A stretch of 64,000 nt of DNA from Candidatus Woesearchaeota archaeon (GTDB lineage Archaea > Nanobdellota > Nanobdellia > Woesearchaeales > DSVV01), in the NCBI GenBank assembly GCA_018661705.1, contig JABJHR010000015.1, positions 3,525 to 67,524 on the forward strand, written 5' to 3'. This document shows, piece after piece, positions 1,678-55,740 of this stretch. The number at the start of each line of letters is the position of its first letter. Position 1 is the stretch's first letter. The notes beneath the pieces were generated by a model, which worked only from the letters and a program-made list of their open reading frames with translations, did not search any database and was not told the DNA's origin. Position numbers and translations under genes: made by a program.

Positions 1678-1930
1678 GCAGGCATGCCCAATAATGGCCA
1701 TATAAATCAGCTCAAGGTTTAATCCCTGTCCATTCTCCATCTGGCGACCTTGCAAGCACCTGTGCAAAAGCTTAATGCTGCTCCGATCAAGGCCTGACAT
1801 GGTTCGCAAAAGCATAAGTCCTGCAAGACCAAATTTCATTGGCAAGACAAGGACCTTGTGCTAAAATATATGACGCTTACCAGGCTTCAGCTCCTACATA
1901 AGTCCGTTGTAGGTAACAGGTGAGGACTAA
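1678..1930. ncRNA. GC-rich island, candidate structured ncRNA (possibly SRP/7S-like). Strand and identity unresolved
   Basis: About 250 nt with sharply elevated G+C relative to the flanks. Multiple local hairpins, for example CCTACAtaagtccgtTGTAGG. The minus strand carries GUCAGGCC...GGAGCAGCA, reminiscent of the SRP RNA helix-8 motif. It shares a GTCCGT word with repeat families A and B. Confidence 0.3.
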
Positions 1931-2028
1931 CCACCCAGCCTAGCCTACCTAAGTACTTGGAAGAAAGATTGATTTAAAAAGGTTGTGATGATAACTGCTA
2001 TTTCGTAAGATTTTTATATTAGATAAAT

Positions 2029-30226: not shown

Positions 30227-33200
30227 ATGAAAAAAGAGTTTAAGATTATCTTTATTATTTTAATGCTTGTTTTAGCTGTATTTCTAACTGCATGTGATGG
30301 TGATTTAGCAGGGGAAGCACGTAAAGCAATAAAGAGAGTAAAAGGTTTACCAGCATATGATAATGTTAAGATAAAATGTACTGATTCTGATGGTGGAATA
30401 AACCTGAATGAAAAAGGAATTACAAAAGGAATGTATAGGGGCAAATATAAAATAAAAAGAGATGGTTGTAATAAAAGAGGAAAGGTTGTTGAGTATTTTT
30501 GTGATAGAAATAATAAGGTAAAAAGGATTGTTAAGAAATGCCCTAGTGGTGGTAAGTGTTATAAAGGTAGTTGTTTAAAATGTACTGATTCTGATGGTGG
30601 AATAAACCTAGAAGAAAAAGGTGAAACAAAAGGATTAATCTTGATGAAAAATGGAAAAAAGAAACAGGTTACTAAAAATGATTATTGTAAAAGAGGTAAG
30701 TTGAGAGAATACTTTTGTGGTCGCGATAATAAAATTAAATCTAAACTAAAAAGTTGTGATGGTGGTGGGGTTTGTGAATCTGGTGAATGTGTGGGGGGTT
30801 CTTTATGGACGTCTCTAGATGGTCCGCCTGGAGCAGGAAGAATAAGAAAATTAATCCAAAATCCTAACCAGCCTTATGAATTATACACACTTAACCGTCT
30901 AGGAGTTTATAAGTCTGTAAATAAGGGAGAAAACTGGCAATTAATTATTGATTCTAAAAATGTTGAAGTTGAGTCTATTGTTATTTTTGAAGATAAATTG
31001 TTTGTTTCTGGTGATGGTGTTTATTATTTAAATGAAGGTAATAATGATTTAATTAAAATTAATGGTGGTTGGTGGAATGAAATATTTGTAAGTGATAACA
31101 AACTTTTGATTTCTAGAAGAGACGGGGCAATTGAAGACGTTAAACTAATGTATGTAGATTTGGAGAATTCGTATACGGATTTGGATTCTTCCGACTGGAA
31201 TTATATCTCCCCCTCTGTTGAAGAATTAATAGATTTAGAGCCACCAAGTGAGAGCCAATACCAATTTAGTGTAGGAATTCCTCAAGTCTTAGCAATTGAA
31301 AACAGAATTTTTGCTAATGTTATTCTTGAAGTTGATGAAGCAAGCGAGTACACTAATGGTCATTTGTATGTCTCAAAGAATAATGGGGAAACATGGGATA
31401 AAGTTGATCTTGACCTTGATATTCCTCCTAACAAAATTCAGCCAATTATTAGTAATATTATCCAAAATCCTAATAATCCAAACCATATTTTATTGATGTT
31501 AAGGCATCCCATTATTCATGAATATAAATATCCTATTTCTCAATTATTAAGAGAATCTTATGATGGTGGAATAACTTGGCAACCAGTAACAGATTTAGAT
31601 GATATAGAATCTAATGGATTTCTTGGTGGAAGTATAGATGGATTGATTTATTATTTACTGGATGCTTATAGTGGTTTATCTATATTTAAATTAGATGGTT
31701 CTAATCACAAAATAATTGATATGCCAGAAATTGCTGGTCACGAAATGAGATTAGAGGATTTCCTAGTTGATCCTTATGATTCAAATATTGTATATGGAAA
31801 AACTGGACAAATTTGGGAATTTGGTTTAGTTAAGTCAGAAGATAAGATGAAAACTTGGAAAAAAATGGATAAGGATATTACAGCTTCATCACCCACTATT
31901 GTAAAAATTGATCCAACAGATCCAAACACTATTTTTACTTCTTCAAATATTCTTCAGGAAGATTACTACACTAATGACGGTGGGGTTACTTGGAAATATT
32001 TTTCACCCACAGCTTCAGTAGATGAAGTTAGCATTGATCCTCATAACCCTAATAATATTCTCATTGTAGATGAAATGACCCATGTTTTTTCCTCAAAAAA
32101 TGGGGGTCAAAATTTTGAAGAAATTAATTATAATGGATTTTATGGAAATAAAATATTTGATTTTGAAATAACTTCTGGCAATAATAAAAAAATATATGTC
32201 TCAAACTTGGGCACAGGTATTTCACAATCTGATGATTTTTCAGACTACAAAGAATTAGGTCAATGGAGTTGGAGGCATTTAACTAGTTCCTCTGATTATG
32301 CTTATGATATTGAAATTGATCCAGATGACGAGAATATTCTTTATGCCAGTTACTCACCTAAAATATTTGAAAATCATTCTGCAATCTTGAAATATGATCC
32401 TAATGATGATGGCTTTGGTTGGAGTGAAATATTAAAGGTAGAAAAATCAAAAGGAATAACCTCATTAGAATTTGATAAGATTAATTCAAATAATTTTTAT
32501 GCAGGTGTAGTTGGTGAAAAGGGAGTAATTTATCATAGCAATGATAAAGGAGATAGTTGGTCTAATTTAAATGAAGATTTAACTTTCTCAACTATTCATG
32601 CAATTGCTGTTGATCCTAATAATGAAAATGTTGTTTATGCTGCTCCTTGGGGTGGTGGTTTATTTGTTTCTCAAGATAATGGTGATTCTTGGCAAAAGAT
32701 AGAAACTCCAACAATTTCTATCCCTGCAATTATTGTTGATCCTGAATATTCTAATCACTTAATTATTGCAGATAGAACAGCACCTAAAATCTATGAGTCT
32801 TTCAATGCTGGCCAGAACTGGAACGAGCTTGTTAGTTTAGATAAAAGGGATTATTATAGGATTAGTACTATGGTTTTACATAATGGTGAACTTTATTTTA
32901 ATGTATTCAATAAAGTTACTGGTATGATCTCTTTGTTTGTTAATGGTCCTATGTCTGGGACAACATTTAAACTAGATGTTGGCGGAACATCACTTAAAAA
33001 TTCTAATGCTGGTACGCCAGTGGAAATTTCTAATGGTGTTGAGGGCGATATTATCATAAACTTTTTTTCTGATGATAATAATCTTTATTCAATTAGTCAC
33101 ATTTATGGTGTGAATAAATTAGAAGGAAGTAATTGGGTTGATATCTCTCCTGAAGTTAACATGGGTTTTAATAATATTATCTCTGATGGGGATAACAATC

Positions 33201-35020
33201 TTTACATCAGCGGGGCTTCAGATATTGATATGGATTTAAATTTTAGAATTGGTGATCCCAATATTGTTAATAATATCTATAAAAGTACAAATAATGGAGC
33301 AACTTGGGTTCCACTTTTAGAAAACAATCAATTTAATAGTGGAATTAAGAAAGTATTACAACATCCAACTAATAATAATATTCTTTTTGCTGCTACAGGT
33401 ACTGGTTTATATATTTCATTAGATCAAGGAAATAGTTGGGCTTTGCAAAATGGTTTAAACTTTAAGAACATTGGTTCAATGAGTGTTACTAATGATAATG
33501 TTTATGTTGGAACACTTGGTGGTGGTGTTTATGTTGGAAAAATAAAACCAGGTGTTATAATATCAACATTTGATGAGGGTTATGTTGGGAACATAAATCC
33601 AAATTTTTTAGTAACTTGGTCTGCTACCAATGGACCATTTCCAGAGATCTTTAACATTCAGCTAAAAGTTGATCCAACTAATTCAAATATAATTTATGCT
33701 ACTTCATTTCCTGGTGGTGTGTTTAAATCTACAGATGGTGGAATAACATGGATGGAAAGTAATTTTGCCTTGCCAAGTTTTGAAGTTCTAGATCCTTTTA
33801 CACAAGGGTATTATAGTTTAGAAATAGATCCAAATAATTCTGATGTCCTTTATTTAGGTATATTTGGTAAAGGTGTTTACAAATCAGAGGATGGGGCATC
33901 TACTTGGATTCCAATGTATGGTTCCATGGGACAAAATAAAAAAATCATGAAAAAAGGTATTACTCAAATAAAAGTTGATTCCACTGATTCAAACAAAGTA
34001 TACTTAGCAACTAATGACGGTGTTTATATCTCTGATAATGGGGCGGAAAGTTGGGAAGAGATAAATAAAGGTCTACAAACGCCTGATATAAAATCATTAA
34101 GGGTTGTTGATGATATAGTGTATGTTGGAACAGCAGGATATGGTATGTATGTTTTTAATCCAACAGAAGAAGAATGGCAAAATTTAGGAAGGACATTATC
34201 TGGTGGTTGGTGGAAACCATGGGGTAGAAGAATGTATCAATTTTCTACATTGTTATTTGATCCAGATGTGCCAGGTAAAATTTATTTTGGGAATTTCCCG
34301 GGTGGTTTTTATATTAGCGAGGATAATGGTGGTAGTTGGAAAGATTCAAGTATTGGTTTAGGAAATGACGGTGTTTTCTCTTTAAGTGTACAGCCAGATA
34401 ATCATAATATTCTTTGGGCAGGAACATATAATGGTATATCAAAATCAACAGATAAAGGAAAAACGTGGGTTATGAAAGGAAAGAATGGTGTTGAAGATTT
34501 GAAACAGAATGAAGCTTGGGAAGCTTGGGAAAATAATGTTCCTGGAATAATTCCTCCTGAGCAATGGCCCTATAATATTGTTATTGATAATAATGATCTT
34601 GAAATTATGTATATCTCAACAAAAAATGGTAGGAACATGGGGTTCTGTAATAGAAACTGTGAAAAAGAAAATTGTGATGAAAATAATTTTTGTGGGATTG
34701 TTATGAAATCAATAAATGGAGGAGAAAGTTGGTTTGAAATAATGAATGGATTAGATTGGAGCAGTGAATTTTATACTCTTATAATTTATCCGCCTAACCA
34801 TGATGTTTTATTTTTAAGTACTGATTATGGTGTTTTTCTAAGTATGGACGCAGGAAGTAATTGGGAGTCCATGGATGATGGATTACCAACTAAAAATAAT
34901 AATGTAAGAGATAATGTGGCAGATAATTTGGCTCTGAGCGTAGATAATCAATATTTATTCTTAGGCCTTGTAAAATATGGTGTTTGGAAAGCAGATTTAA
35001 GTAAGTTGGATTTATCCTAA
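30227..35020 (+). CDS. Giant secreted BNR/Asp-box repeat lipoprotein (multi-beta-propeller, sortilin/Ycf48-like) with duplicated N-terminal Cys-rich module
   Basis: Signal peptide with lipobox LTAC. Two tandem copies of the six-Cys module (CTDSDGGIN...EYFC...C..G.C). About 18 S-x-D-x-G-x-[ST]-W BNR repeats (STDGGITW, SNDKGDSW, SQDNGDSW, STDKGKTW, SINGGESW and others) spread over about 1400 aa. Confidence 0.8.
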   Translation: MKKEFKIIFIILMLVLAVFLTACDGDLAGEARKAIKRVKGLPAYDNVKIKCTDSDGGINLNEKGITKGMYRGKYKIKRDGCNKRGKVVEYFCDRNNKVKRIVKKCPSGGKCYKGSCLKCTDSDGGINLEEKGETKGLILMKNGKKKQVTKNDYCKRGKLREYFCGRDNKIKSKLKSCDGGGVCESGECVGGSLWTSLDGPPGAGRIRKLIQNPNQPYELYTLNRLGVYKSVNKGENWQLIIDSKNVEVESIVIFEDKLFVSGDGVYYLNEGNNDLIKINGGWWNEIFVSDNKLLISRRDGAIEDVKLMYVDLENSYTDLDSSDWNYISPSVEELIDLEPPSESQYQFSVGIPQVLAIENRIFANVILEVDEASEYTNGHLYVSKNNGETWDKVDLDLDIPPNKIQPIISNIIQNPNNPNHILLMLRHPIIHEYKYPISQLLRESYDGGITWQPVTDLDDIESNGFLGGSIDGLIYYLLDAYSGLSIFKLDGSNHKIIDMPEIAGHEMRLEDFLVDPYDSNIVYGKTGQIWEFGLVKSEDKMKTWKKMDKDITASSPTIVKIDPTDPNTIFTSSNILQEDYYTNDGGVTWKYFSPTASVDEVSIDPHNPNNILIVDEMTHVFSSKNGGQNFEEINYNGFYGNKIFDFEITSGNNKKIYVSNLGTGISQSDDFSDYKELGQWSWRHLTSSSDYAYDIEIDPDDENILYASYSPKIFENHSAILKYDPNDDGFGWSEILKVEKSKGITSLEFDKINSNNFYAGVVGEKGVIYHSNDKGDSWSNLNEDLTFSTIHAIAVDPNNENVVYAAPWGGGLFVSQDNGDSWQKIETPTISIPAIIVDPEYSNHLIIADRTAPKIYESFNAGQNWNELVSLDKRDYYRISTMVLHNGELYFNVFNKVTGMISLFVNGPMSGTTFKLDVGGTSLKNSNAGTPVEISNGVEGDIIINFFSDDNNLYSISHIYGVNKLEGSNWVDISPEVNMGFNNIISDGDNNLYISGASDIDMDLNFRIGDPNIVNNIYKSTNNGATWVPLLENNQFNSGIKKVLQHPTNNNILFAATGTGLYISLDQGNSWALQNGLNFKNIGSMSVTNDNVYVGTLGGGVYVGKIKPGVIISTFDEGYVGNINPNFLVTWSATNGPFPEIFNIQLKVDPTNSNIIYATSFPGGVFKSTDGGITWMESNFALPSFEVLDPFTQGYYSLEIDPNNSDVLYLGIFGKGVYKSEDGASTWIPMYGSMGQNKKIMKKGITQIKVDSTDSNKVYLATNDGVYISDNGAESWEEINKGLQTPDIKSLRVVDDIVYVGTAGYGMYVFNPTEEEWQNLGRTLSGGWWKPWGRRMYQFSTLLFDPDVPGKIYFGNFPGGFYISEDNGGSWKDSSIGLGNDGVFSLSVQPDNHNILWAGTYNGISKSTDKGKTWVMKGKNGVEDLKQNEAWEAWENNVPGIIPPEQWPYNIVIDNNDLEIMYISTKNGRNMGFCNRNCEKENCDENNFCGIVMKSINGGESWFEIMNGLDWSSEFYTLIIYPPNHDVLFLSTDYGVFLSMDAGSNWESMDDGLPTKNNNVRDNVADNLALSVDNQYLFLGLVKYGVWKADLSKLDLS

Positions 35021-37268: not shown

Positions 37269-38171
37269 CTATGATTTCAATTGTTTATTAATTTCAGCTT
37301 TTATAACTTTGTAAGGCTGTGCCCCTTGAAGTACTTCCCCATTAATTATTAATGTTGGGGTAAACTTAACTCCATTTGCTTTACCTTCTGTTATATCTTT
37401 ATCAACTTCTTCAGATTTTTCATGATTTGTTAAGCATTCCACAAATAAATCATAATCATCAAAATCCATTAACTCTGCCATATCTAATAAATCTTGTTCT
37501 GTTTCTTTTGGCAAATCACTGAAATATAACGCGTTATGAAATTCAATAAATCTATTTTGATCGTTTGCACATTCTGAAGCTTCTGCAGCAAGCTTAGACA
37601 GTGGATGTAATTCTTCGTTTGGAAATTGTTTATGATATATTAGAATTTTATTTCCAAAATCTTTTTTAATGTCTTTTAGTGTAACTTGCATCTCTGCGCA
37701 GTATTCACAATAAAAGTCAGAATACTCATAAATTGTTACTGTTTTTGTAATTGGAGTAACTGGTTGTGTATACTTATAAACAAAAAATAAAACCATCACA
37801 ATAATTACTAATAATATTAAATAACTCCAAAAGCTACCTTCTTTTTTTCCATTTTTTCCATTTTTTCCCATTACTATCACCCTTGTGTCTTCTTCACCTT
37901 TTTGTTTTTTAGGTGTAAGATTTTTTTTAGAATTTTTTTTAATTGTTTTTTTATCTGCCTCTTTTGGATCTACTTTTGCAGGTTTATTTATTATATCTTT
38001 AACTGCTTTTTTCTTTTTTTCCTCTTCTTTAATTTTTTTATCAACCACTTTTAGTTTTTCTTCAATCTTTTTTTTACCTTTTATATACTCCTCTTTTTTT
38101 ACAATGCCTGCTCTATAAGTTTTTTCAAAATGATCTAATTGTTTTTTTAACCGCTTTTTTTCGTTTTTCAT
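37269..38171 (-). CDS. Membrane-anchored DsbA/thioredoxin-like oxidoreductase with K-rich N-terminal region
   Basis: CEYC redox motif, a single TM (LILLVIIVMVLFFVY) and a lysine-rich coiled N-terminus. Confidence 0.55.
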   Translation of the reverse strand: MKNEKKRLKKQLDHFEKTYRAGIVKKEEYIKGKKKIEEKLKVVDKKIKEEEKKKKAVKDIINKPAKVDPKEADKKTIKKNSKKNLTPKKQKGEEDTRVIVMGKNGKNGKKEGSFWSYLILLVIIVMVLFFVYKYTQPVTPITKTVTIYEYSDFYCEYCAEMQVTLKDIKKDFGNKILIYHKQFPNEELHPLSKLAAEASECANDQNRFIEFHNALYFSDLPKETEQDLLDMAELMDFDDYDLFVECLTNHEKSEEVDKDITEGKANGVKFTPTLIINGEVLQGAQPYKVIKAEINKQLKS

Positions 38172-38435
38172 TTTTATCCACTCTCTTATTGCTATGTTTT
38201 ATCGTATTATGTACTATTATATTAACTTTTTTGATTTTTACTTTATATTTTGTTTTGCCATATATTTATAACTATTAAGTAACTTAATTAACCCATAAGG
38301 TTTTTGAGTTTATATTAATTTATGTTTCAGAGTAATCAATTCAGTGATATTTGGCATAATTAATGCCTTGTTATTTAAAATAGTCTCTTATCTAATTCAA
38401 TAATATTTATATAAAGTCCTAACATCCTGGTTTAT

Positions 38436-40022
38436 ATGGATTCCATAAAATCAAAAAAGAATGATGATATCATCAAAGGCACAATTATTGGTGGTGCTTT
38501 TAATAAGATTTTAATTAGACAAAAAACTAATCAAAATATTGAATTAGGGGAGCTTCTTGTTTCAGGAAAAAATCCTAAAATTCTACTTCAAGCATATGAT
38601 CTTATATATGGGAGCCAACTTTCACAAAATCATTTGGAATTGATTTCTGGTATGAAATTAGAACAAGGATCTTCATTAGAATTTATGGATGGGGAGCTAA
38701 GAAATTATAATCTTGTTGTTGCAAAAAATCTTATGGCATTAGATACAAACAATATTAGTAAATCTTTGCCATCTTTTTTTTCAGATGTAAATGCTTTGTC
38801 TAACGATGATTTAAAATTCTTTTCCCTGCCAAATAATCCTTTATTTTTTGGTAATCTTAGAAGTGGTTCTAATGTTTTAGAACAAACAATTAACTTAGAT
38901 GCCAAAAAAGTTTTACCTGAACATATACTTATTACTGCATCAACAGGTAAAGGAAAAAGTAATCTCACCTCTTGTTTGTTATGGTCTTTGATTGATAAAG
39001 ATGCGTGCGGCATTTTAATTTTAGATCCCCATGATGAATATTATGGTAGAAATAAAATTGGATTAAAGGATTTTTCAAAGAATTCTTTAGACAATACAAC
39101 ACAAAAAAATAAAGTGGTTTATTATTCTAAATCTCCACTTCCTGGCACAATGTCATTAAAAATTAATCTCAGTAAAATTAAACCATCACATTTTAATGGT
39201 GTGGTTAATTGGAGTGATGCACAGTATGAAGCACTTATAGCTTATCATCGTAAATATAAACAAGATTGGATTAAAGCAATATTAACTGAACAAGAAATTA
39301 ATGGTTTTCATGAAACAACATTAGCGGTTATTAAAAGGCGATTGTTAAACATATTAGACCTCCAATCTTTTGATGGGAAAATAATTTGTCAAGGTATATT
39401 TGATTTTGATGCTGGTGAAACCACTATTAGTGATGTTTGTCATGAACTAGAATTAGCAAATACAGTAATCATTGATACTTCTAATCTTTCTAGTAATGTT
39501 GAAGTTTTAGTTGGTTCTTTGATAAGTACTGAACTTTTTTATAAATATAAACGATATAAAACAACAGGCGTGTTAAAAGAAAAACCAGTTATTTCAATTG
39601 TAATTGAAGAAGCGCCGCGTGTTTTGGGAAAAGAAGTTCTAGAAAAAGGATCAAACATTTTTAGTACTCTAGCTAGGGAAGGAAGGAAATTTAAGGTTGG
39701 ATTAATTGCAATTACTCAACTCCCATCCCTTATTCCAAGACAAATCCTTGCAAATATGAACACTAAAATTATTTTAGGTATGGAAATGGGTGTTGAAAGA
39801 AGAGCAATTATTGAGTCTTCTGCACAAGATCTTAGTGATGATGAGAAAAATATTGCTTTATTAGATAAAGGAGAGGCAATTATTACTAGTAATTTTGTAA
39901 AATTTGCAACACCTATTAAAATGCCACTTTTTGAAGAAATGGTGAAAAAAGAGCAAAATTCAGCTAAAAACTCACAAAATTTAAATGTTAGGAATGATTA
40001 TACTAGTATTGGGGGTGCTTAA
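38436..40022 (+). CDS. herA: HerA/FtsK-like hexameric ATPase (HerA helicase family)
   Basis: N-terminal HAS-barrel-like region, Walker [15 protein letters not shown] and Walker B VIIDTSN, and an arginine-finger region. The size matches archaeal HerA. Confidence 0.7.
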
Positions 40023-40023
40023 T

Positions 40024-40611
40024 ATGGCATTTATTAATATGACACAGAATAAAAGAACAATTAATAAAATAGTATTCTTTTTTACATTAGTATTTTTAAT
40101 CAGTATTTTATCAAATATTGTTGTTGCAGATAAATTTTATATCTTTGAAAAAACTAATGAATTAATCCAAGTAGATGGTCATAAGATAATTTTGGTTGAT
40201 GCTACAACAGAAAGTGAATGTATCTTTACAATTGATGGTGAAGGATTTGTTATTGCTAAAGATCATGAAGATGGAACTAATGAAGTTGATATCTTTGTTA
40301 AAGAAGCAATTCCAATAAGAACAAAAGGAGAAAATTCAGTATATTGTTCTGCTCTAATTGATGTTAAAATTCCAAGGAAAGTTCAGGAAGTGGAAACTGT
40401 TGATGAAACAGATAATTCTGATGATCAAACTGCAGTACAAGACCTTGATGAAAATGTAGTAGAATCTGCAGATACAACTGATGTAACCGATACAACAGAT
40501 GATGCTGTCGAAGACTCAACAGAAGATACAACAAAAAAAGAAGCTAAAAAAGGGTGGTTTACTAGATTAATTAATTCAATTACAAACTGGCTTGATAGCT
40601 TGGTGAATTAA
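40024..40611 (+). CDS. Membrane-anchored protein with acidic D/T/E-rich C-terminal tail
   Basis: ATG 1 nt after the herA stop. A TM (IVFFFTLVFLISILSNIVVA), a beta-rich middle segment and a D/T-rich tail. The ORF track extends the start to 39985, inside herA. Confidence 0.4.
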   Translation: MAFINMTQNKRTINKIVFFFTLVFLISILSNIVVADKFYIFEKTNELIQVDGHKIILVDATTESECIFTIDGEGFVIAKDHEDGTNEVDIFVKEAIPIRTKGENSVYCSALIDVKIPRKVQEVETVDETDNSDDQTAVQDLDENVVESADTTDVTDTTDDAVEDSTEDTTKKEAKKGWFTRLINSITNWLDSLVN

Positions 40612-40614
40612 TAA

Positions 40615-41865
40615 ATGAAGTTTGCACACTTAGCAGATGCACATATTGGAAGTTGGAGAGACCCTAAGTTAAGTGATGCAAGTTTAATTGCATTTCTTAA
40701 AGCAATGGATCTTTGTGTAAGTAAGGCTGTAGATTTTATTTTAATTAGTGGGGATTTGTTTAATACTTCATTGCCTTCTATTGATCGTTTAAAAGAGGTT
40801 GTTAAGAAATTAAAACAAGTTAAAGAATCAAATATTGAGGTATATATCGTGCCAGGGAGCCATGATTTCTCTCCAAGTGGAAAAACCATGTTGGATGTTC
40901 TTGAATATGCGGGATTGGTTAAAAACGTTGTTAAAGGAGAAGTAAGAGATGATAAACTTTACTTGAAATTTACAACTGATCAAAAAACAGGTGTAAAGAT
41001 TACAGGCATGCTAGGTAAAAGGGGCATGCTGGAAAAAAGTTTTTATGAAACTCTAGATCTAGAATCACTTGAACAAAAACAAGGATTTAAAATTTTTATG
41101 TTTCATACTGCTTTAACAGAACTTAAACCTAAAGACTTAGCGGAAATGGACTCTGCACCATTATCATTTTTACCCAAAGGTTTTGATTACTATGCGGGTG
41201 GCCATATACATCAGGTTATTGAAAAACGTGAAACTGATTATGGATTAATCACTTACCCTGGGGCATTGTTTCCTAATTCATTCAAAGAAATAGAGCAATT
41301 TAATCCAGGTGGTTTTTATATTTATGAAGAAGGGAAGGTTGAATATTGTCCTGTTCCTGTATTTGATGTTGTTTCTATTAATTTAAATTGTAATCAAAAA
41401 TCTCCCCAAGAAATTAGAACAATGATTTTACAGGAGATAAACAGATTATTGCCAGATGATAATACAAATGTAAAAGATTATTCAAAAACAATTGTTACTC
41501 TTAGATTGCACGGAGTGTTAAGTGAAGGCAAGGTAACAAATATTGGATTTAGTGATGTATTTGAAAGAATATATGAAAAAGGAGTTTATTTTATTATGAA
41601 GAATACATTGAGATTAACAACAAAGGATTTTGAAGAAATAATGATCGCAGCTGATAAGAGTCATGATTTTGAAAGTAGTTTAATTAAGGAGCATTTGGGA
41701 AAAGCAAAACTTGAATTAAACTTAGAAAAAAAGTATAAATTTGATGATCCTGAATTTTTAAAAGAATTTATGATGGTATTAGATATTGAAAAACAAGAAG
41801 GGGAAAGAAATATTGATTTTGAACAACGTTTAGAAAATAATTTTGATAAGTTCTTAGAAATTTGA
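40615..41865 (+). CDS. mre11: Mre11/SbcD-like calcineurin-fold nuclease
   Basis: Phosphoesterase motifs I (HLADAHIG), II (GDLFN), III (GSHD) and V (GGHIH) in Mre11 order. No rad50 or nurA follows. Confidence 0.65.
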   Translation: MKFAHLADAHIGSWRDPKLSDASLIAFLKAMDLCVSKAVDFILISGDLFNTSLPSIDRLKEVVKKLKQVKESNIEVYIVPGSHDFSPSGKTMLDVLEYAGLVKNVVKGEVRDDKLYLKFTTDQKTGVKITGMLGKRGMLEKSFYETLDLESLEQKQGFKIFMFHTALTELKPKDLAEMDSAPLSFLPKGFDYYAGGHIHQVIEKRETDYGLITYPGALFPNSFKEIEQFNPGGFYIYEEGKVEYCPVPVFDVVSINLNCNQKSPQEIRTMILQEINRLLPDDNTNVKDYSKTIVTLRLHGVLSEGKVTNIGFSDVFERIYEKGVYFIMKNTLRLTTKDFEEIMIAADKSHDFESSLIKEHLGKAKLELNLEKKYKFDDPEFLKEFMMVLDIEKQEGERNIDFEQRLENNFDKFLEI

Positions 41866-41899: not shown

Positions 41900-43459
41900 T
41901 TATACCTCTGCTGTTTCTAGTGGCTCTTCTATTGCTGGTGTTGTTTCTCCAGATACTTCTTCTAATAATTCGTCAATTACTTTTCTAAACTCTGTATCTT
42001 CTGCTACTAAATCACCTTCTACTTCATAGCCATTTCCAAGTCTATGGTATCTGCAACCAAAAACAAAACTAGGGACACCACCATAAGAATTGAATTTACT
42101 AAAGATTGCTTCATGTTCTTGAGGAATTGTTTTTTCTATTTCTTCTGTTATTGTGTTATCTTTTGTATCAAATTCCCAATGATAAGCTTCAATCTTTCCT
42201 TGTTCTACATATTCTTTAACAACACCATCGTATGTTGCCTTAATCCATTTACAGTGTGGGCAAGTTGTAGTTGAAAACATAAATACTAATGGTTTTCCAT
42301 CTTCAGACAAACAAAGATCTCCTTCTGCAATTGAAAATGTTCCAATTCCTTTCTCAGCAAGTTCTGTGTTTTCTTCTACGTTATCAATGGAGTTAACATA
42401 TACAACTTTTGCTTTTGTTTTTAGATCTTCAATATATGTTCCAACTTCTGTTTGTAAGGCTGTATTTGTGACTGATTCAATTATATCATTTTTTAAGTCT
42501 TCTAATGTTGATTTTTTCTCTGCTACTTTAATTACATGGTAACCAAAGCTAGTTTTTACTGCTTCAGAAACTTCATCAACATTAAGATCAAATGCAGTAT
42601 TTTCAAATTCAGGAACCATCATACCTCTGCCGAACCATCCTAAATCTCCGCCCATTGGAGCAGAAGGCCCATCAGAATATTCTTTTGCTAATTCTGCAAA
42701 ATCATCTCCTGCTTTTGCTTTTCCAATAACTTCTTCAATTATTGTTAAAGCTTCTTCTTCTGTTCTTTCTTTTTCACAGGTATCGATGCCTTCATAACAA
42801 ACTAAAATATGTGATGCTTTTACAGAAGTTAATGTGTCTTTATTTGCATCGTAATATGCTTTAATTTCTTCTTCTGTTGGTTCTTGTCCACCAAGTTCAG
42901 ATTCAATTAATTTGTTAAGTAGTAATTGTTCTCTATAATTTGCAACTAATTCATCATAAGTTAAGCCTTCTTCTGCTAATCTTACTTTAAATTCTTCTTC
43001 AGTAATGCCCATTTGCAAATATAATTCTTCTATTTTTGCTACAACTTCTGAACTACTAACTTCTAATTCTAATTCTGTTGCTTTTTGTACTAATAATTCT
43101 TTAACAATCATTTGTTCAAGAATATTTTCTTTAAATTCAGTTGTTTCTGCAGCTTGTTTATAATATTCTGGTAGTTTTGCTATTTCTGCATTTAAATCAT
43201 CAACTGTTATTTCCTTTCCATCAACTGTTACAAGGAGATTAGCATCAACTTGGTCTGGCTTTGGTAAAAGTTTGCCCATGTTTACTATGAAAATACCAAT
43301 TGCAATTATTGCAACAACAGAAAGAACAATTGTCCAAATGTTTGATTTTTCATCTTTTTCTTTAGAAGAAACATGATGTTGGTGAGTTTTTGTTTTGTGC
43401 GTGTGCTGTGTTTTGTGGTTTTCTACTTTTTTATTATTTTTTTCTGTCAAGAATATCAT
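41900..43459 (-). CDS. Membrane-anchored parvulin-type peptidyl-prolyl isomerase fused to a C-terminal thioredoxin-like domain
   Basis: An N-terminal TM and a SurA-like helical region. A parvulin domain (KASHILV...GGDLGWF...GYHVIKV) is followed by a thioredoxin-like domain with a CPHC motif. Confidence 0.6.
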   Translation of the reverse strand: MIFLTEKNNKKVENHKTQHTHKTKTHQHHVSSKEKDEKSNIWTIVLSVVAIIAIGIFIVNMGKLLPKPDQVDANLLVTVDGKEITVDDLNAEIAKLPEYYKQAAETTEFKENILEQMIVKELLVQKATELELEVSSSEVVAKIEELYLQMGITEEEFKVRLAEEGLTYDELVANYREQLLLNKLIESELGGQEPTEEEIKAYYDANKDTLTSVKASHILVCYEGIDTCEKERTEEEALTIIEEVIGKAKAGDDFAELAKEYSDGPSAPMGGDLGWFGRGMMVPEFENTAFDLNVDEVSEAVKTSFGYHVIKVAEKKSTLEDLKNDIIESVTNTALQTEVGTYIEDLKTKAKVVYVNSIDNVEENTELAEKGIGTFSIAEGDLCLSEDGKPLVFMFSTTTCPHCKWIKATYDGVVKEYVEQGKIEAYHWEFDTKDNTITEEIEKTIPQEHEAIFSKFNSYGGVPSFVFGCRYHRLGNGYEVEGDLVAEDTEFRKVIDELLEEVSGETTPAIEEPLETAEV

Positions 43460-43737: not shown

Positions 43738-44088
43738 ATGAGGAAAATCAAGATGACGATGGGGCATCACATCATTGCAAGCCTAAGGGGATGCTCTATA
43801 AATTTAATAAATAATACTTCTAGATTAAACTCTCTTCTAAACCAAGTTGTTATTGAAGCAAATTTTCATAAAGTTGGAGAAATTTCTACAATTATTAAAG
43901 AAGATACATTATCATCTTTTGTTTTGTTATCTGAATCTCACATTAGTATATATTCAAACCCAGAAAATGGCCATGTTGAATTGGATGTTTTTTGCTGCAG
44001 TGGCGAAGATTCTGCAAGATTAGCCATAAATTCATTAATCAAGCATTTAAACCCAGAATCTCATCAGGTTAAGGAGATACCAAGGTAA
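43738..44088 (+). CDS. Pyruvoyl-dependent decarboxylase proenzyme, SpeH family (AdoMetDC or derived arginine decarboxylase), paralog 1
   Basis: The self-cleavage motif LSESHISIY and an FCCSGE motif match the small archaeal/bacterial SpeH family. Confidence 0.7.
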   Translation: MRKIKMTMGHHIIASLRGCSINLINNTSRLNSLLNQVVIEANFHKVGEISTIIKEDTLSSFVLLSESHISIYSNPENGHVELDVFCCSGEDSARLAINSLIKHLNPESHQVKEIPR

Positions 44089-44162: not shown

Positions 44163-44504
44163 ATGACGGGGACAATGGGTGTGCATCTACTGGCAAATAT
44201 TTTTGGTTGTCCAGTTGAGGTTTTAAATTATGAAGCAGATGTGGCTAGGCTTCTTAATGAAGTTGTTGTTGATGCTAAATTAACTAAAGTTAGTGAAAGT
44301 CATTTTCAATTTGATCCTGTCGGTGTTACTTCAGTTATTTTATTAGCAGAGTCTCATATTAGCATTCATACTTGGCCAGAGCACGGAAGTGCTGCCGTTG
44401 ATATTTTCTGTTGTAGCGGTGAAGAAGCTGCAAATCGTGCATTTAAGGCTTTGCTTGAACGGTTTAAACCCGAAAAACATGATTGTCAGATTATCAAGAG
44501 ATGA
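44163..44504 (+). CDS. speH: S-adenosylmethionine decarboxylase proenzyme (SpeH family), paralog 2
   Basis: LAESHISIHTWPE and FCCSGE motifs, colinear with the upstream paralog. Confidence 0.8.
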   Translation: MTGTMGVHLLANIFGCPVEVLNYEADVARLLNEVVVDAKLTKVSESHFQFDPVGVTSVILLAESHISIHTWPEHGSAAVDIFCCSGEEAANRAFKALLERFKPEKHDCQIIKR

Positions 44505-47432: not shown

Positions 47433-48077
47433 ATGGTACCAAGAAAATTTGGTTTTGTACATGTTTACACTGGTGATGGTAAAGGGAAAACTACTGCGGC
47501 TATGGGATTAGCATTGAGAGCAATTGGTCAAGGATTTAAGGTTTTTATTATCCAATTTCTTAAAGGTGGAGCGTATACTGGAGAATTTATCTCTATGAAG
47601 AATTTTCTCCCTAAAGAAAATAAAGAAATTGTACAATTTGGAGAAGGATGTGTTAAGGAACTTAAACAATTCAAATTACAAGGTTTTCAAAAAGGAGCAC
47701 GAAAAGAAAATTGTGAATATTTTGATTATATCAGAGAAGATATTGAATGTGGGAATTGTCGTGAATGTTTTTTAGATGATGAAAAACAAAAAAAATCATC
47801 GCGAGAAGCATTTGCTCTTGCAAGCGATATTCTTAGTAGTGAAAAATATGATCTTGTGGTATTAGATGAAATTAATAATGCAATAAGTCATAAATACATT
47901 TCAGTTAATGAAGTAATTGAATTAATTCAAAAAAAAGCACCGCGGATAGAATTGGTTTTAACTGGAAGGTGTGCACCACCAGAAATTATTCAGGTGGCAG
48001 ATTTAGTAACAGAAATGAAATGTATTAAACATTACTATGAAAATGGTGTGTTTGCAAGGAGAGGAATTGAATATTAA
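47433..48077 (+). CDS. cobO: Corrinoid adenosyltransferase (CobO/CobA-like)
   Basis: P-loop HVYTGDGKGKTTAA, conserved FIIQFLKGG and VLDEIN motifs, and a size of about 214 aa. Confidence 0.75.
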   Translation: MVPRKFGFVHVYTGDGKGKTTAAMGLALRAIGQGFKVFIIQFLKGGAYTGEFISMKNFLPKENKEIVQFGEGCVKELKQFKLQGFQKGARKENCEYFDYIREDIECGNCRECFLDDEKQKKSSREAFALASDILSSEKYDLVVLDEINNAISHKYISVNEVIELIQKKAPRIELVLTGRCAPPEIIQVADLVTEMKCIKHYYENGVFARRGIEY

Positions 48078-48256: not shown

Positions 48257-50350
48257 ATGCCTGTTTTAAAGGTTAGTAAAAGAGACGGAAGCCTAGTTGT
48301 TTTTAATAAAGAAAAAATATCTGGTGCTATTTTCAATGCAGCGTATGCAGTAGGAGGCTCTGATAAAGATAGGGCTGATCACCTAGCAGATATTGTTGTT
48401 AAGAAAGTTAATGAAAAATATGGGGATGAAGTTCCAACGGTAGAAGATATTCAAGATTTAGTTGAAAGAGTTTTAATTGAAGAACATCATATTAAAACTG
48501 CTAAAGCATATATCCTATATCGTGAAAAAAAGACAAGATTAAGAGAACTAAAAAAATCCTTGGTTGGAACTTTTGTAGCTAAGAAACTTAGTTATAATGC
48601 ATTAAAAATATTGAAAGAAAGATATTTGATGAAGGATGAAAATGGAGCAATTGCTGAAACCCCTTTGGGTATGTTTCGTAGAGTAGCACATAATGTTGCA
48701 AAAGCAGATAAGATTTATAACGATTTTGATCCAAAAAAATCAGAAGAGATTTTTAATGAAGCAATGGATAATCTTTATTTCTTACCAAATTCTCCTACCT
48801 TAATGAATGCAGGAACACAAATGCAACAACTTAGTGCATGTTTTGTTCTTCCAATTGAAGATTCTATTGAGAGTATTTACATGGCACTGAGAAATGCTGC
48901 CATTATCCATCAAAGTGGTGGTGGAACAGGATTTAGTTTTTCTGGTTTAAGACCAAAAGGAGACATTATTGGTTCAACAAGAGGACCTAGTTCTGGGCCA
49001 AAATCCTTTATTGAATTGTTTGATAAGTCAACAGAAATAATAAAAAAAGGTGGTAGAAGAAGGGGCGCAAATATGGGTGTTCTTAGAGTTGATCATCCTG
49101 ATGTTTTAGATTTTATCAATGCAAAAGAAAATACAGAAGTATTAACAAATTTTAATCTTTCAGTTGGATTAACAAGTAAATTTATTCAGGCACTAAAGAG
49201 AGATAACATGTATGATCTTATTAACCCTAAAACGGGAGAGGTAGTTCGTAAATTACCTGCGAGGGAAGTTTTTGATTTAATTGCAACCATGGCTTGGAAA
49301 AATGGTGAACCAGGAATACTTTTCTTAGATACTATTAATAAAGAAAATCCCTTGGCAAGTTTGGGAGAGATAAAAACAACAAATCCTTGTGGAGAAGTTC
49401 CTTTGTTACCCTATGAATCATGTAATTTAGGATCTATTAACTTATATCACATGGTTGAAGGAAAAGAAGTTGATTATGAAAAGCTAAGAAAAACAGTTTG
49501 GTTAGCGATACATTTTCTTGATAATGTTATTGAAATGAATAAATACCCACTTAAAGAAATTGAAACTATTACTAAAGCAAATAGGAAGATTGGGCTTGGT
49601 GTAATGGGTTTTTCAGATATGCTTTATAGGTTAGGAATTAAATATGATAGCGAGGAGGGTTTAAAGTTTGCTGAAAAATTAATTGGATTTATTTATGAAG
49701 AAGCAAAAAAAGCATCAATAGAACTTGCAAAGCGAAGAGGAGTTTTTACAAATTGGAAAAAAAGTAAATATGTCGAAGAAGGAATTAAACTAAGAAATGG
49801 AACACTTCTTTCAATTGCACCAACCGGAACATTAAGTATGATTGCAGATTGTAGTGGTAGTATTGAACCAAATTTTGCCTTGTCTTACATTAAACGAGTT
49901 ATGGGTGGAGAAGAATTTTTATTTGTGAACAAACATTTTGCAGATGTTGCCAGAGAAAGAGGATTTTATTCAGAGGAATTAATGAAAAAAATTGCAAATA
50001 AAGGATCAATACAAAGTTTTAGGGAAATTCCTAAAGATGTTAGAGATGTTTTTGTTACTAGTCACGATATTTCTGCAGAATATCATGTTAGAATGCAGGC
50101 TGCATTTCAGAAACATGTTGATAATGCAGTTTCTAAAAGTGTAAATCTAAGATATACTGCACAAAAAGACGATATGGCTAACATTTTTAAATTAGCACAT
50201 GAGTTGGGTTGTAAAGGAATTACTGTATATAGGGATGGTAGTAGAGATAATCAAGTTTTGAATGTTGAGTATGATAAAAATTTATCACAAAAGCAAGAAA
50301 GAAGAATTGTTAAAAAACGTAGAGTTCCTAATAAATGTGAAACTTGTTGA
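48257..50350 (+). CDS. nrdJ: Class II (adenosylcobalamin-dependent) ribonucleotide reductase NrdJ, second paralog
   Basis: ATP cone (SKRDGSLVVFNKEKI), NPCGEVPLLPYESCNLGSINL, and a C-terminal CETC tail. It is colinear with the upstream nrdJ. Confidence 0.85.
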   Translation: MPVLKVSKRDGSLVVFNKEKISGAIFNAAYAVGGSDKDRADHLADIVVKKVNEKYGDEVPTVEDIQDLVERVLIEEHHIKTAKAYILYREKKTRLRELKKSLVGTFVAKKLSYNALKILKERYLMKDENGAIAETPLGMFRRVAHNVAKADKIYNDFDPKKSEEIFNEAMDNLYFLPNSPTLMNAGTQMQQLSACFVLPIEDSIESIYMALRNAAIIHQSGGGTGFSFSGLRPKGDIIGSTRGPSSGPKSFIELFDKSTEIIKKGGRRRGANMGVLRVDHPDVLDFINAKENTEVLTNFNLSVGLTSKFIQALKRDNMYDLINPKTGEVVRKLPAREVFDLIATMAWKNGEPGILFLDTINKENPLASLGEIKTTNPCGEVPLLPYESCNLGSINLYHMVEGKEVDYEKLRKTVWLAIHFLDNVIEMNKYPLKEIETITKANRKIGLGVMGFSDMLYRLGIKYDSEEGLKFAEKLIGFIYEEAKKASIELAKRRGVFTNWKKSKYVEEGIKLRNGTLLSIAPTGTLSMIADCSGSIEPNFALSYIKRVMGGEEFLFVNKHFADVARERGFYSEELMKKIANKGSIQSFREIPKDVRDVFVTSHDISAEYHVRMQAAFQKHVDNAVSKSVNLRYTAQKDDMANIFKLAHELGCKGITVYRDGSRDNQVLNVEYDKNLSQKQERRIVKKRRVPNKCETC

Positions 50351-54153: not shown

Positions 54154-55740
54154 TTATTTTTTATTTCCTTTGCCTTTTTTGTTTTTTTTTGTTTTTTTAA
54201 TTGGTTTATTATTGATATTTTTAATTACTTTTTTCTTTGGTTTTATCTTAACTGCTTTTACAATTACTTTTTTAGTTTTTTCAACAACTCTTTTTACTGT
54301 TTTTTTAGGTTCTGTTGTTGTTTTGACTTTTTTAGAAAACTTTTCAACCTCATCAATATCCTTTTTTAAATTGTTAATTTTGGAACTTAGGTTTATTATT
54401 TCCTTGTTTATTTCATCTTTGCTTGACTTATCTTTTACTTCTTTACTTATCTTTGAGATTTGTGTTGTTATATTTGCAAGATCTTTTTCTTTCAAGGAAA
54501 TATGTGATAAAGCGTCTGTAGTTAATTCTAACTTTTCTTTTAATTTGTCTAAGTCTTTTTTACCTACAAATTCATCTAATTTACTGAGTTTTTTAGTTTC
54601 TTTTAAAAGATAACTTGTTCTTTCTTCTAATTCATCTATTTCTTTCTTTAAATTTTGGTATTTTGAAGTATTTGCTTCTAATAACTTTTCGACTTCTTTT
54701 TTTAAGACAATATTATTTTTAATTTTATCAAGGTCTTCTTTTACTTTCCCAAATTCGTTGTCAAGCTTATTAATTTCTTTCTTTGTTAAATCTTTTTTCC
54801 CTTCGGCTTTTTTAATCTTAAATTGAAGATTTTCAACAGAAAATTGTATGTCTTTGAATCTGTTTTCTGTTTTTTTAAGTTCATTTTCAAAGCTTTTCTT
54901 ATCAGTTACCTTTTCAAGAGCTTTTTTCATTTCTTCTATGTTTACAAGTGGTTTAATTGAATTAGAAAGTTTTAATATTGTACTGTTGAGTTCATTTGTT
55001 TCTGACCACACATTATTAATTTTTTTTGTTAATTCTTGTCTTTGTTCATCTATTTTTTTATTAGTTGTTTTTTCAATATTTTTTCTTGTTTTCTCAGTTT
55101 TTTCAAGTGATTTAATAGACTTGGATTGTTTTGATATCTTGTCATTAAGTCCATTTGTTTCTGACCAAACCCCGCTGATCTTTTTGTTCATTTCTTGTTT
55201 TTGTTTGTGTATTTCTTTATTTACTTCTTTTCTTGGAATAAAATTTCTCTCAACATCTTCGACTTCTACTCCAAAATTAAATAAATGGTCTAAACGTTTA
55301 TCTATTTCTTTTAAACTTCTATCTATTTTTAATGTAAATTTATTAAATTCTAACTTTTTTATGAATTTATTTTTTAAATCAGAAATTTCATTACGGAATG
55401 CAGTAACGTCATTCTTTAATCCTAATGCTTTTTTTAGTTCAGATCTTTTATATTTCTCTTTCTCTACATGTTTCATTAATTTTTTATTTAATTTGTTGCT
55501 AGACTTTACTTCTGAATCTATTCTTTTATTTATTTTGTTTGTAGTATTCTTAAGATCATCTTTTAAATCTTTTATTAGACTATTATGCTCCTTTCTAAGC
55601 TGAGTTACTTCTGCAAAAAGCTTTACATAGTCTTCTTTGCTTATGAATTTCTCATCTGAATTTTCTTTAAGTAGTTTCATATCTTTTTTTACATTAGAAA
55701 AAGCCCTAGTTACTCTTTTATCAAGTTTGTTAACATCCAT
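54154..55740 (-). CDS. Long coiled-coil protein with lysine-rich C-terminal tail
   Basis: 528 aa, almost entirely heptad-like K/E/L-rich coiled coil, with a terminal KKxK basic tail. Confidence 0.5.
   Translation of the reverse strand: MDVNKLDKRVTRAFSNVKKDMKLLKENSDEKFISKEDYVKLFAEVTQLRKEHNSLIKDLKDDLKNTTNKINKRIDSEVKSSNKLNKKLMKHVEKEKYKRSELKKALGLKNDVTAFRNEISDLKNKFIKKLEFNKFTLKIDRSLKEIDKRLDHLFNFGVEVEDVERNFIPRKEVNKEIHKQKQEMNKKISGVWSETNGLNDKISKQSKSIKSLEKTEKTRKNIEKTTNKKIDEQRQELTKKINNVWSETNELNSTILKLSNSIKPLVNIEEMKKALEKVTDKKSFENELKKTENRFKDIQFSVENLQFKIKKAEGKKDLTKKEINKLDNEFGKVKEDLDKIKNNIVLKKEVEKLLEANTSKYQNLKKEIDELEERTSYLLKETKKLSKLDEFVGKKDLDKLKEKLELTTDALSHISLKEKDLANITTQISKISKEVKDKSSKDEINKEIINLSSKINNLKKDIDEVEKFSKKVKTTTEPKKTVKRVVEKTKKVIVKAVKIKPKKKVIKNINNKPIKKTKKNKKGKGNKK

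Follow-up and report, generated by a model that had tools for sequence, protein, structure and literature searches.

A native herA-mre11 pair, probably a reduced end-processing cluster, with a lineage-specific gene inserted between its members in a Woesearchaeota archaeon

The 64-kb stretch of Woesearchaeota DNA analysed here (below, the window) contains three consecutive genes on the forward strand: herA, a middle gene termed Mid, and mre11. All three open reading frames recognized by an earlier sequence-only reading were confirmed at their positions by the ORF list, and the same three are called in five public assemblies. The genes and the signals read from the sequence around them are the following.

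38406..38415, forward strand: TATA-box-like element TTTATATAAA, ~25 nt before the herA ATG (read from the sequence)
38436..40022, forward strand: herA, 528 aa (ORF list, Pfam and PDB profile matches)
40011..40017, forward strand: Shine-Dalgarno-like motif GGGGGTG, 6 nt before the Mid ATG, within the 3' end of herA (read from the sequence)
40024..40611, forward strand: Mid, the middle gene, 195 aa (homologue-supported ATG at 40024)
40602..40606, forward strand: Shine-Dalgarno-like motif GGTGA, 8 nt before the mre11 ATG, within the 3' end of Mid (read from the sequence)
40615..41865, forward strand: mre11, 416 aa (Pfam Metallophos, match to P. furiosus Mre11)
41900-43459, minus strand: SurA/PPIC-type PPIase-thioredoxin gene, converging downstream of mre11

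The full middle ORF encompasses 39985-40611, with the homologue-supported start at the ATG in position 40024; the GGGGGTG motif upstream would support this start as well as translational coupling. The middle protein had initially been described as 196 aa long, which has to be revised to 195 aa and a stop codon, while the 1-nt gap after the herA stop stands; the Mid stop is followed by a 3-nt spacer, and the GGTGA before mre11 may play a Shine-Dalgarno role. TTTATATAAA is a candidate archaeal promoter that could drive a leaderless or short-leader herA-mid-mre11 transcript (a scan for sigma-70 promoters and terminators is uninformative for an archaeon). The trio is neighbored by a DsbA-like gene and the PPIase gene, both on the minus strand, the latter correctly recognized from the outset as lying on the opposite strand. 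Contigs of the same organism added ~10 kb on the left and ~3 kb on the right of the window, with genes for an FG-GAP surface protein, a PEP-utilizer, TrmB and a class-I tRNA synthetase.

HerA is a translocase of dsDNA that forms hexamers, and its usual partner is NurA. The product of the first gene contains the DUF87/HerA central domain (Pfam, 2e-24, residues 138-366), with the Walker A motif ASTGKGKS (168-175) and the Walker B motif IVIEE (388-392), and no transmembrane segment (highest 19-residue Kyte-Doolittle hydropathy: 1.31). The best NCBIfam models, HerA_Thermprot and helicase_HerA, were matched far below their equivalog cutoffs (NF040937: 93.1 bits vs 800; NF040819: 84.9 bits vs 970); the protein is a member of a divergent DPANN clade. 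With the single sequence as a query, the best PADLOC HerA model scored 96.9 bits, nearly the same as the NCBIfam repair model with 93.1 bits, hence single-profile scores do not discriminate; the NCBIfam model of the DNA-translocating ATPase CedD gave a weak match (68 bits), below the repair-HerA score. The comparison of repair-type with defence-type HerAs, proposed earlier as a check, was decided by the family profile, which favours the repair HerAs by at least 12 orders of magnitude (PDB: 4D2I, Sulfolobus HerA, 5e-32; 9X1L, T. kodakarensis HerA in the HerA-NurA complex, 2e-26; defence HerAs, 2e-14 or worse). The alignment with 4D2I comprises residues 19-204 and 293-465, including the A-x-T-G-x-G-K-S motif, and covers the N-terminal barrel. 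The defence HerAs (SIR2-HerA and DUF4297-HerA; 8XAU, 8WIV, 9C1M, 8ZIQ) have an ATPase core of the same HerA/FtsK type and likewise combine an ATPase gene with a nuclease-like gene, but their similarity to the family is confined to the C-terminal ATPase region. On these alignments, the protein is a repair-type HerA with both the N-terminal barrel and the FtsK-type ATPase core predicted to be present.

Mre11 is a Mn-dependent endonuclease and 3'-5' exonuclease, and its stable action without a Rad50/SbcC partner is not known in most organisms. The third protein matches Pfam Metallophos (1e-13), while its best NCBIfam model, Mre11_Pyroc, was reached with 114 bits against a 600-bit cutoff. Searches of the PDB identified P. 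furiosus Mre11 (1II7/4HD0; 3e-26 for the single sequence, ~3e-35 to 5e-35 for the family profile), and the profile matched exclusively Mre11/SbcD chains. Seven of the eight catalytic and metal-binding residues are kept (D8, H10, D47, H83, H164, H197 and H199, equivalent to D8, H10, D49, H85, H173, H206 and H208 of the P. furiosus enzyme), the exception being N84, replaced by S82. Motif III thus reads GSHD rather than GNHD, a feature conserved at >=90% in 53 sequences (the Mre11 of the window and 52 homologues), and since Ser here occupies the position of the Mn-binding Asn, the nuclease chemistry may differ. The phosphoesterase and capping domains span residues 1-270, and as the alignment with the P. 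furiosus protein reaches residues 270-273 of the query (288-294 of the template), the capping domain is taken to be present. The C-terminal ~140 aa are helical, with a few conserved positions, and resemble the Rad50-binding domain (RBD) in size, but no similarity to RBD-containing chains (3AV0 and 3QG5) could be detected. By its profile matches, the third protein is an Mre11/SbcD-type nuclease, nearest to P. furiosus Mre11.

Among hundreds of Woesearchaeota/Nanoarchaeota species HerA shows ~60% identity (54-64% in tblastn comparisons with the 80 species loci that were fetched), and a relative is encoded in at least 575 pattern-matched stretches from GTDB species representatives. In 53 of the 80 species loci (63 of them informative) mre11 is found downstream of herA on the same strand. 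The two genes abut or overlap directly in 14 species; an overlap of 4 nt is seen in four species, and a distance within 10 nt in four more. Many species show only loose linkage, the two genes being separated by as much as 8 kb of unrelated genes, and in 8 species there is none, so that synteny does not prove that HerA and Mre11 co-operate. Across species, over 40 unrelated gene families occupy the interval, among them giant surface proteins and a lysine-biosynthesis operon, and the surroundings are of the housekeeping type (MCM, OapB/C, GatA/B, AspRS, adenylate kinase). Both genes are near-universal in the lineage, and the pair is vertically inherited like a housekeeping gene. The three-gene module of HerA, membrane protein and phosphoesterase envisaged in the sequence-only reading is not a general unit: Mid accompanies the pair in only four of the 80 loci, in addition to two metagenome or assembly contigs (L086 and L087).

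Mid carries a single strongly hydrophobic segment (residues 16-34, Kyte-Doolittle 2.72). Its N-terminus combines positive charges (1-15), a hydrophobic stretch (16-35) and an A-x-A-like site, VVA|D, and residues 1-35 are predicted to act as a signal peptide or signal anchor. Next come a small domain rich in beta structure, in which two Cys are conserved (36-114; low-confidence AF2 model and family alignments), a disordered linker rich in D, T and E (115-176; of its 62 residues 13 are D, 11 are T and 8 are E) and a C-terminal amphipathic helix (177-195; low-confidence AF2 model). The confidence of the model (pLDDT 53) is too low for a fold search. Pfam and PADLOC returned no match for Mid, and NCBIfam a single weak one (E 0.011, 16 bits vs a cutoff of 85). 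An exhaustive HMMER search of 1.84 billion proteins collected 26 representatives of the family, and a word-indexed search 2 clusters. The identity of Mid to its relatives is 42%, 28% and 23%, compared with 58-64% for HerA from the same genomes. Its rate of evolution is two to three times that of the neighbouring genes, and its GC content equals theirs. From the charge distribution and the A-x-A-like site, Mid is predicted to face outward, with all but ~15 residues outside the cell. As it is predicted to face outward and evolves rapidly, Mid is most likely the passenger product of a lineage-specific orphan gene family, with a probable function in the envelope, and is probably not a subunit of the cytoplasmic machine. 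All seven family members examined sit, tightly spaced, between herA and mre11, a pattern to be expected of a functional partner as well.

As had been noted from the sequence, neither rad50 nor nurA accompanies the herA-mre11 pair: none was found among the scanned or read ORFs of the window and its ~13 kb of flank. The search combined Pfam analysis of large or unassigned ORFs, reading of the translations without hits, and regular expressions for Rad50/SMC motifs (Walker A, zinc hook, signature). Within ±10 kb of herA in the 80 relatives it likewise revealed no NurA and no ORF with a Rad50/SMC-type Walker A. Several candidates were rejected: a 528-aa K-rich coiled-coil ORF of the window (54154-55740) has no P-loop; 900-aa proteins encoded between herA and mre11 (loci L063, L066 and L078) show neither a Pfam match nor a Walker A that would identify them as Rad50; 250-300-aa proteins encoded right after herA in several relatives, considered as short NurA, have no Pfam match and are helical or coiled-coil-like; and the family fam230, considered as a cryptic NurA, has a VapC-type PIN fold (DUF3368). 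A search of the literature on Rad50, Mre11 and HerA in DPANN or Woesearchaeota found nothing relevant.

In 45-46 of the 80 related loci a UPF0175-like gene is paired with a COG2405 PIN-like gene, mostly located upstream of herA and in its orientation; the pair overlaps the herA start in several relatives and is often translationally coupled to herA. No such pair was found in the ~77 kb available for the organism of the window. According to the literature, UPF0175 occurs only with COG2405, and the pair is typically toxin-antitoxin-like (PMC5499597). The relatives' pair agrees with this class in composition (one protein has a C-terminus resembling UPF0175, the other a DUF3368 PIN fold); unlike typical toxin-antitoxin components, however, its proteins are larger and ~50% identical across the order-level lineage.

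The locus is probably a native, vertically inherited herA-mre11 pair forming a reduced archaeal end-processing cluster, in which the inserted lineage-specific Mid is most probably a passenger and Rad50 and NurA, if any, are encoded elsewhere. The suggestion that the genes form a reduced repair operon is supported: both HerA and Mre11 are nearest to canonical archaeal repair proteins, and the order herA-then-mre11 is conserved across Woesearchaeota. The archaeal herA-mre11-rad50-nurA operon (Sulfolobus, Pyrococcus/Thermococcus) has the same order on the same strand, and its proteins are aligned with those of the window over the N-terminal and ATPase parts of HerA and over the nuclease and capping domains of Mre11, with the catalytic His/Asp kept. 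Unlike that four-gene operon, the present cluster includes neither rad50 nor nurA (nor do the ~77 kb here or the ±10 kb in the 80 relatives), harbours an unrelated gene for a predicted exported protein between herA and mre11, has GSHD for GNHD, and encodes two proteins far below the NCBIfam cutoffs. By analogy with the Sulfolobus, Pyrococcus and Thermococcus homologues, the most likely joint substrates of HerA and Mre11 would be DNA double-strand breaks or stalled forks, where Mre11 would nick and trim the ends and HerA would supply ATP-driven DNA translocation and unwinding. In S. acidocaldarius, Mre11 is co-immunoprecipitated with HerA (PMC2288612). The Mid gene would have been inserted into the herA-mre11 interval in this subclade and would be co-transcribed here with both neighbours, as suggested by the 1-nt and 3-nt spacers and the internal Shine-Dalgarno-like motifs, giving a small secreted or membrane-anchored, presumably disulfide-containing product with an acidic tail.

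The sequence-only reading had also considered a defence or DNA-translocation system, which does not agree with near-universal, ~60% identical genes among housekeeping neighbours, with no adjacent effector or defence gene and with a HerA devoid of transmembrane segments. An antiviral HerA-plus-effector system with the Mre11-like phosphoesterase as the effector is very improbable, although PADLOC HerA models score the ATPase with up to 96.9 bits and Mre11 weakly matches the PADLOC 'Effector endonuclease' and NCBIfam antiphage phosphoesterases. Against it stand the vertical conservation and housekeeping context of the genes, the strong preference of the HerA family profile for repair proteins and the restriction of the Mre11 profile matches to Mre11/SbcD. 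PADLOC detected no SIR2, DUF4297 or other defence effector near the locus, the sole trace being the weak generic endonuclease match of Mre11; no defence genes were found in the ~77 kb of this organism or in the ±10 kb around herA in the 80 relatives, and no relatives in 2.9 million viral contigs. It is also improbable, if somewhat less so, that Mid is a functional third subunit, either a membrane tether or regulator of HerA-Mre11 or a part of a HerA-driven DNA uptake or export apparatus (Ced-like or FtsK-like). The position of the seven members between herA and mre11, the short spacers with Shine-Dalgarno-like motifs suggestive of co-translation, and, for DNA transport, the CedD match speak for this role. 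However, Mid is missing from 76 of the 80 loci with otherwise equivalent herA-mre11 pairs, other species have dozens of unrelated genes in its slot, it evolves rapidly, and its predicted topology leaves nearly the whole protein outside the cell. Moreover, the CedD score is lower than that of repair HerA, and in contrast to Ced/FtsK-like translocation systems there is neither a membrane-embedded ATPase nor a polytopic membrane partner, Mid having one N-terminal hydrophobic segment.

A further alternative, unlikely but the least so of those considered, is that Woesearchaeota have lost rad50 and nurA altogether, and that HerA-Mre11, possibly with the COG2405 PIN-like nuclease, constitute the whole end-resection apparatus. 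It is consistent with the absence of both genes from the window, the flanks and the vicinity of herA in the 80 species, with the position of the PIN pair upstream of herA in most of the 46 loci that have it, and with the altered motif III throughout the Mre11 family; the literature reports a Rad50-independent Mre11 function in Halobacterium and, in Deinococcus, a HerA-NurA that operates without Mre11-Rad50 (PMC12977600). The absence, however, covers only ~20 kb per genome, Mre11 retains a moderately conserved helical C-terminus comparable in size to a Rad50-binding domain, the PIN pair is missing from the organism's own ~77 kb and is of a toxin-antitoxin-like kind (PMC5499597), and regional synteny is generally conserved, so that adjacency may not reflect function. 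We speculate, with slightly less confidence still than in the loss itself, that Woesearchaeota and perhaps other DPANN use a HerA-Mre11 core with a GSHD Mre11 and without Rad50 and NurA, to which most species might add a domesticated COG2405 PIN-like nuclease and its UPF0175-like partner, both encoded directly upstream of herA, as a replacement of NurA.

The arrangement is an ordinary, reduced set of repair genes. The result mainly corrects the annotation of the 'ATP-binding protein' and 'metallophosphoesterase' in hundreds of Woesearchaeota genomes, which correspond to a repair-type HerA and Mre11, and identifies the middle gene as a clade-specific insertion and not as a part of a new system. 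If it is true that these archaea with reduced genomes lack Rad50 and NurA, HerA-Mre11, perhaps together with the PIN nuclease, would represent a new minimal design of end resection.

The three consecutive open reading frames proposed by the sequence-only reading (herA, a gene for a membrane-anchored protein with a D/T/E-rich tail, hereafter Mid, and mre11) are indeed present, separated by spacers of 1 nt (herA/Mid) and 3 nt (Mid/mre11), and the opposite-strand PPIase noticed after mre11 was identified as a convergent PPIase-thioredoxin gene:

37269-38171 (-), DsbA-like membrane-anchored thioredoxin, predicted extracytoplasmic folding catalyst, divergent, 5' of herA
38436-40022 (+), herA, 528 aa
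40024-40611 (+), Mid, start ATG 40024, 195 aa
40615-41865 (+), mre11, 416 aa
41900-43459 (-), SurA-N/PPIC PPIase fused to a thioredoxin-like domain, predicted extracytoplasmic folding catalyst, convergent, 3' of mre11

The longest middle ORF begins at 39985; the ATG at 40024 was preferred because the homologous proteins start immediately ahead of the hydrophobic segment. A TATA-like element (TTTATATAAA) lies ~25 nt 5' of the herA ATG and the internal start codons are preceded by GGGGGTG (Mid) and GGTGA (mre11), which suggests that the three genes may form a single transcript with coupled translation.

HerA matches the Pfam HerA central domain (2e-24) and has no transmembrane segment; an identical protein, named "ATP-binding protein [Candidatus Woesearchaeota archaeon]" by NCBI, is encoded on contigs of up to 315 kb in marine metagenome assemblies, which places the organism among the DPANN archaea. 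Comparisons of the single sequence were ambiguous, with the NCBIfam repair HerA models scoring 93 and 85 bits, far under their cutoffs, and the top PADLOC HerA model 97 bits. Decisive for its predicted assignment to the repair type, rather than to the defence type also considered in the sequence-only reading, was a family profile of 20 members. It matched Sulfolobus HerA (4D2I) with 5e-32, aligning in the N-terminal barrel/Walker A and C-terminal parts, and 9X1L (T. kodakarensis HerA of the HerA-NurA complex, according to the depositors' paper) with 2e-26, whereas all defence-system HerAs scored 2e-14 or worse, with the alignment confined to the C-terminal ATPase region.

The best PDB match of Mre11 is P. 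furiosus Mre11 (3e-26 for the single sequence, 3e-35 for a family profile of 26 sequences), followed by M. jannaschii Mre11 and bacterial SbcD, and the search returned no match beyond Mre11/SbcD. Residue-by-residue alignment to the P. furiosus protein indicates that D8, H10, D47, H83, H164, H197 and H199 are retained, while Ser82 replaces Asn84, so that motif III reads GSHD (residues 81-84; window 40855-40866) instead of the canonical GNHD. The resulting GSHD-x-SPSGKT signature is at least 90% conserved across 53 aligned family sequences (the window's Mre11 and 52 homologues). The C-terminal region (~140 residues) is moderately conserved, and its sequence is not detectably similar to that of known Rad50-binding domains.

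The earlier description of a herA/membrane protein/Mre11 module without rad50 or nurA is correct for this locus: neither gene was found in the 64-kb window or in ~13 kb of additional flank. Motif scans, together with Pfam scans of the recurrent and inserted genes, did not reveal them in ~1.1 Mb around herA from 80 species either, and a literature search returned nothing on Rad50 or NurA elsewhere in Woesearchaeota genomes. An ORF at 54154-55740 (-), encoding a 528-aa, lysine-rich protein with coiled-coil-like sequence throughout and no Pfam match, was rejected as Rad50 or SMC because it has no P-loop; GC content reaches its minimum for the window here (24% at 54-56 kb).

Contigs of GTDB species representatives encode HerA relatives of 54-64% identity (tblastn); at least 575 stretches were confirmed and 80 loci fetched, labelled without exception as Woesearchaeota, Nanoarchaeota or similar. 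Downstream of herA, on the same strand, mre11 is present in 53 of the 80; it is nearby on the opposite strand in 2, not found within 3.6-10 kb in 8, and could not be placed in 17 where the contig end is too close. Among the 53 same-strand loci, the two genes are adjacent or overlapping in 14 (4 with an ATGA-type 4-nt overlap), separated by about one gene in 19, and by 1.4-8 kb in 20. The interval is variable across species (0 to 8 kb in L006-L085; e.g. L024:11521-19523, L035:11605-18014, L063:11893-15759) and contains more than 40 unrelated, mostly co-directional protein families, including a GGDEF protein, a glycosidase-phosphatase, a LysX/Y/Z/J/K lysine-biosynthesis block, giant surface proteins, 900-aa proteins without a Pfam match, and many orphans. 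The recurrent neighbours of herA are housekeeping genes (Obg-like GTPase, OapB/OapC, MCM, GatA/GatB, AspRS, adenylate kinase, TruD). No defence genes were seen among the neighbours in these loci, and no relatives of the window's HerA were found in 2.9 million viral contigs. Together with the wide conservation, this argues for a vertically inherited core gene pair rather than a defence island. Many Woesearchaeota carry genes for the origin-associated OapC and OapB, a small GTPase and an MCM-domain protein within 10 kb of herA (e.g. L007:2213-3722 (-) and L033:1280-2497 (-)), so herA-mre11 may be located close to a replication origin in this lineage.

Another two-gene pair accompanies herA in 45-46 of the 80 loci, mostly upstream on the same strand and often overlapping its start (e.g. 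L008:8728-9279 (+) with L008:9276-9965 (+); L009:2109-3352; L010:8770-10007). The C-terminus of the first product (~184 aa) is weakly UPF0175-like in 12 of 16 members; the second (~230 aa, DUF3368) has an AF2 model with pLDDT 91, for which every structural neighbour is a PIN domain of VapC type, and conserved residues D7, E43, D125 and E126. According to a survey of the PIN superfamily (PMC5499597), UPF0175 occurs only with COG2405/DUF3368, and such pairs are treated as putative toxin-antitoxin modules. Here the pair is conserved as a core gene would be, and it resembles a domesticated pair of toxin-antitoxin type. It might be a HerA-associated nuclease; however, synteny is conserved generally around herA, and the pair is absent from the ~77 kb available for the window organism.

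Mid has no match in Pfam or PADLOC and one weak match in NCBIfam (E 0.011, 16 bits vs a cutoff of 85). A word-indexed search of 5.8 billion proteins returned its own cluster and one relative. When 1.84 billion representatives were searched exhaustively with HMMER, 26 proteins of 100-235 aa were recovered, with one extra weak match inside a 1,428-aa protein. Behind a positively charged N-terminus, the sequence has a single strongly hydrophobic segment whose end reads VVA|D (AAD or AQG in relatives); it continues with a beta-rich stretch of ~80 residues, in which two cysteines are conserved, a disordered linker (52% D/T/E) and a conserved C-terminal amphipathic helix (KKG-x3-R-x6-F). According to the positive-inside rule, nearly all of Mid is predicted to be outside the cell. 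The herA-mre11 pair with this two-cysteine, predicted exported protein is flanked by the two predicted extracytoplasmic folding catalysts.

The three-gene arrangement is conserved in part: all seven Mid members analysed (including the distant P0124 and P0132) sit between DUF87/HerA and Metallophos/Mre11 genes, but Mid is found in only 4 of the 80 species loci (L006, L029, L055, L036). Members with readable flanks usually have the DsbA-like gene upstream and the PPIase downstream, as in the window (L029, L055 and the further contigs L086 and L087). Mid diverges much faster than its partners (42%, 28% and 23% identity to relatives; in the same genomes HerA reaches 58-64% and Mre11 52-58%), and its GC content equals that of its neighbours. 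A role in cytoplasmic repair is unlikely for a protein with this predicted topology, although its strict positional conservation in the herA-mre11 slot gives that role some probability. The simplest reading is that Mid would be a clade-specific insertion into a permissive herA-mre11 interval, retained there since.

The window has a GC content of ~30% and contains no tRNA genes; its other features include:

1676-1950 (-), archaeal SRP RNA (Rfam RF01857, 133 bits)
30227-35020 (+), giant surface protein of a kind typical for DPANN (1597 aa, secreted), with repeats of BNR/sortilin type and, at the N-terminus, Cys-rich repeats
43738-44088 (+) and 44163-44504 (+), adjacent AdoMet-decarboxylase-like paralogues (PF02675) of 116 aa (111 aa in public assemblies) and 113 aa
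44859-47333 (+) and 48257-50350 (+), tandem ATP-cone ribonucleotide reductase large-subunit-type genes, the former extended at its C-terminus by a long Ser/Thr/Asn/Val-rich stretch that ends in a Cys-rich, zinc-ribbon-like motif
47433-48077 (+), CobA/BtuR-like gene between these two

Of the two possibilities raised initially, the reduced repair operon is supported in the form of a reduced repair-type pair, while a defence or DNA-translocation system is unsupported, given the housekeeping context and the lack of relatives among the viral contigs searched. In this locus herA and mre11 form a reduced arrangement of repair-type genes, conserved across Woesearchaeota, with a gene for a predicted exported orphan protein inserted between them in one subclade. 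It differs from the canonical herA-mre11-rad50-nurA operon in that rad50 and nurA are unlinked, the herA-mre11 interval is variable, and motif III of Mre11 has a conserved change from Asn to Ser. The finding is of modest interest as it stands, and would gain interest if Rad50 and NurA were truly absent genome-wide.
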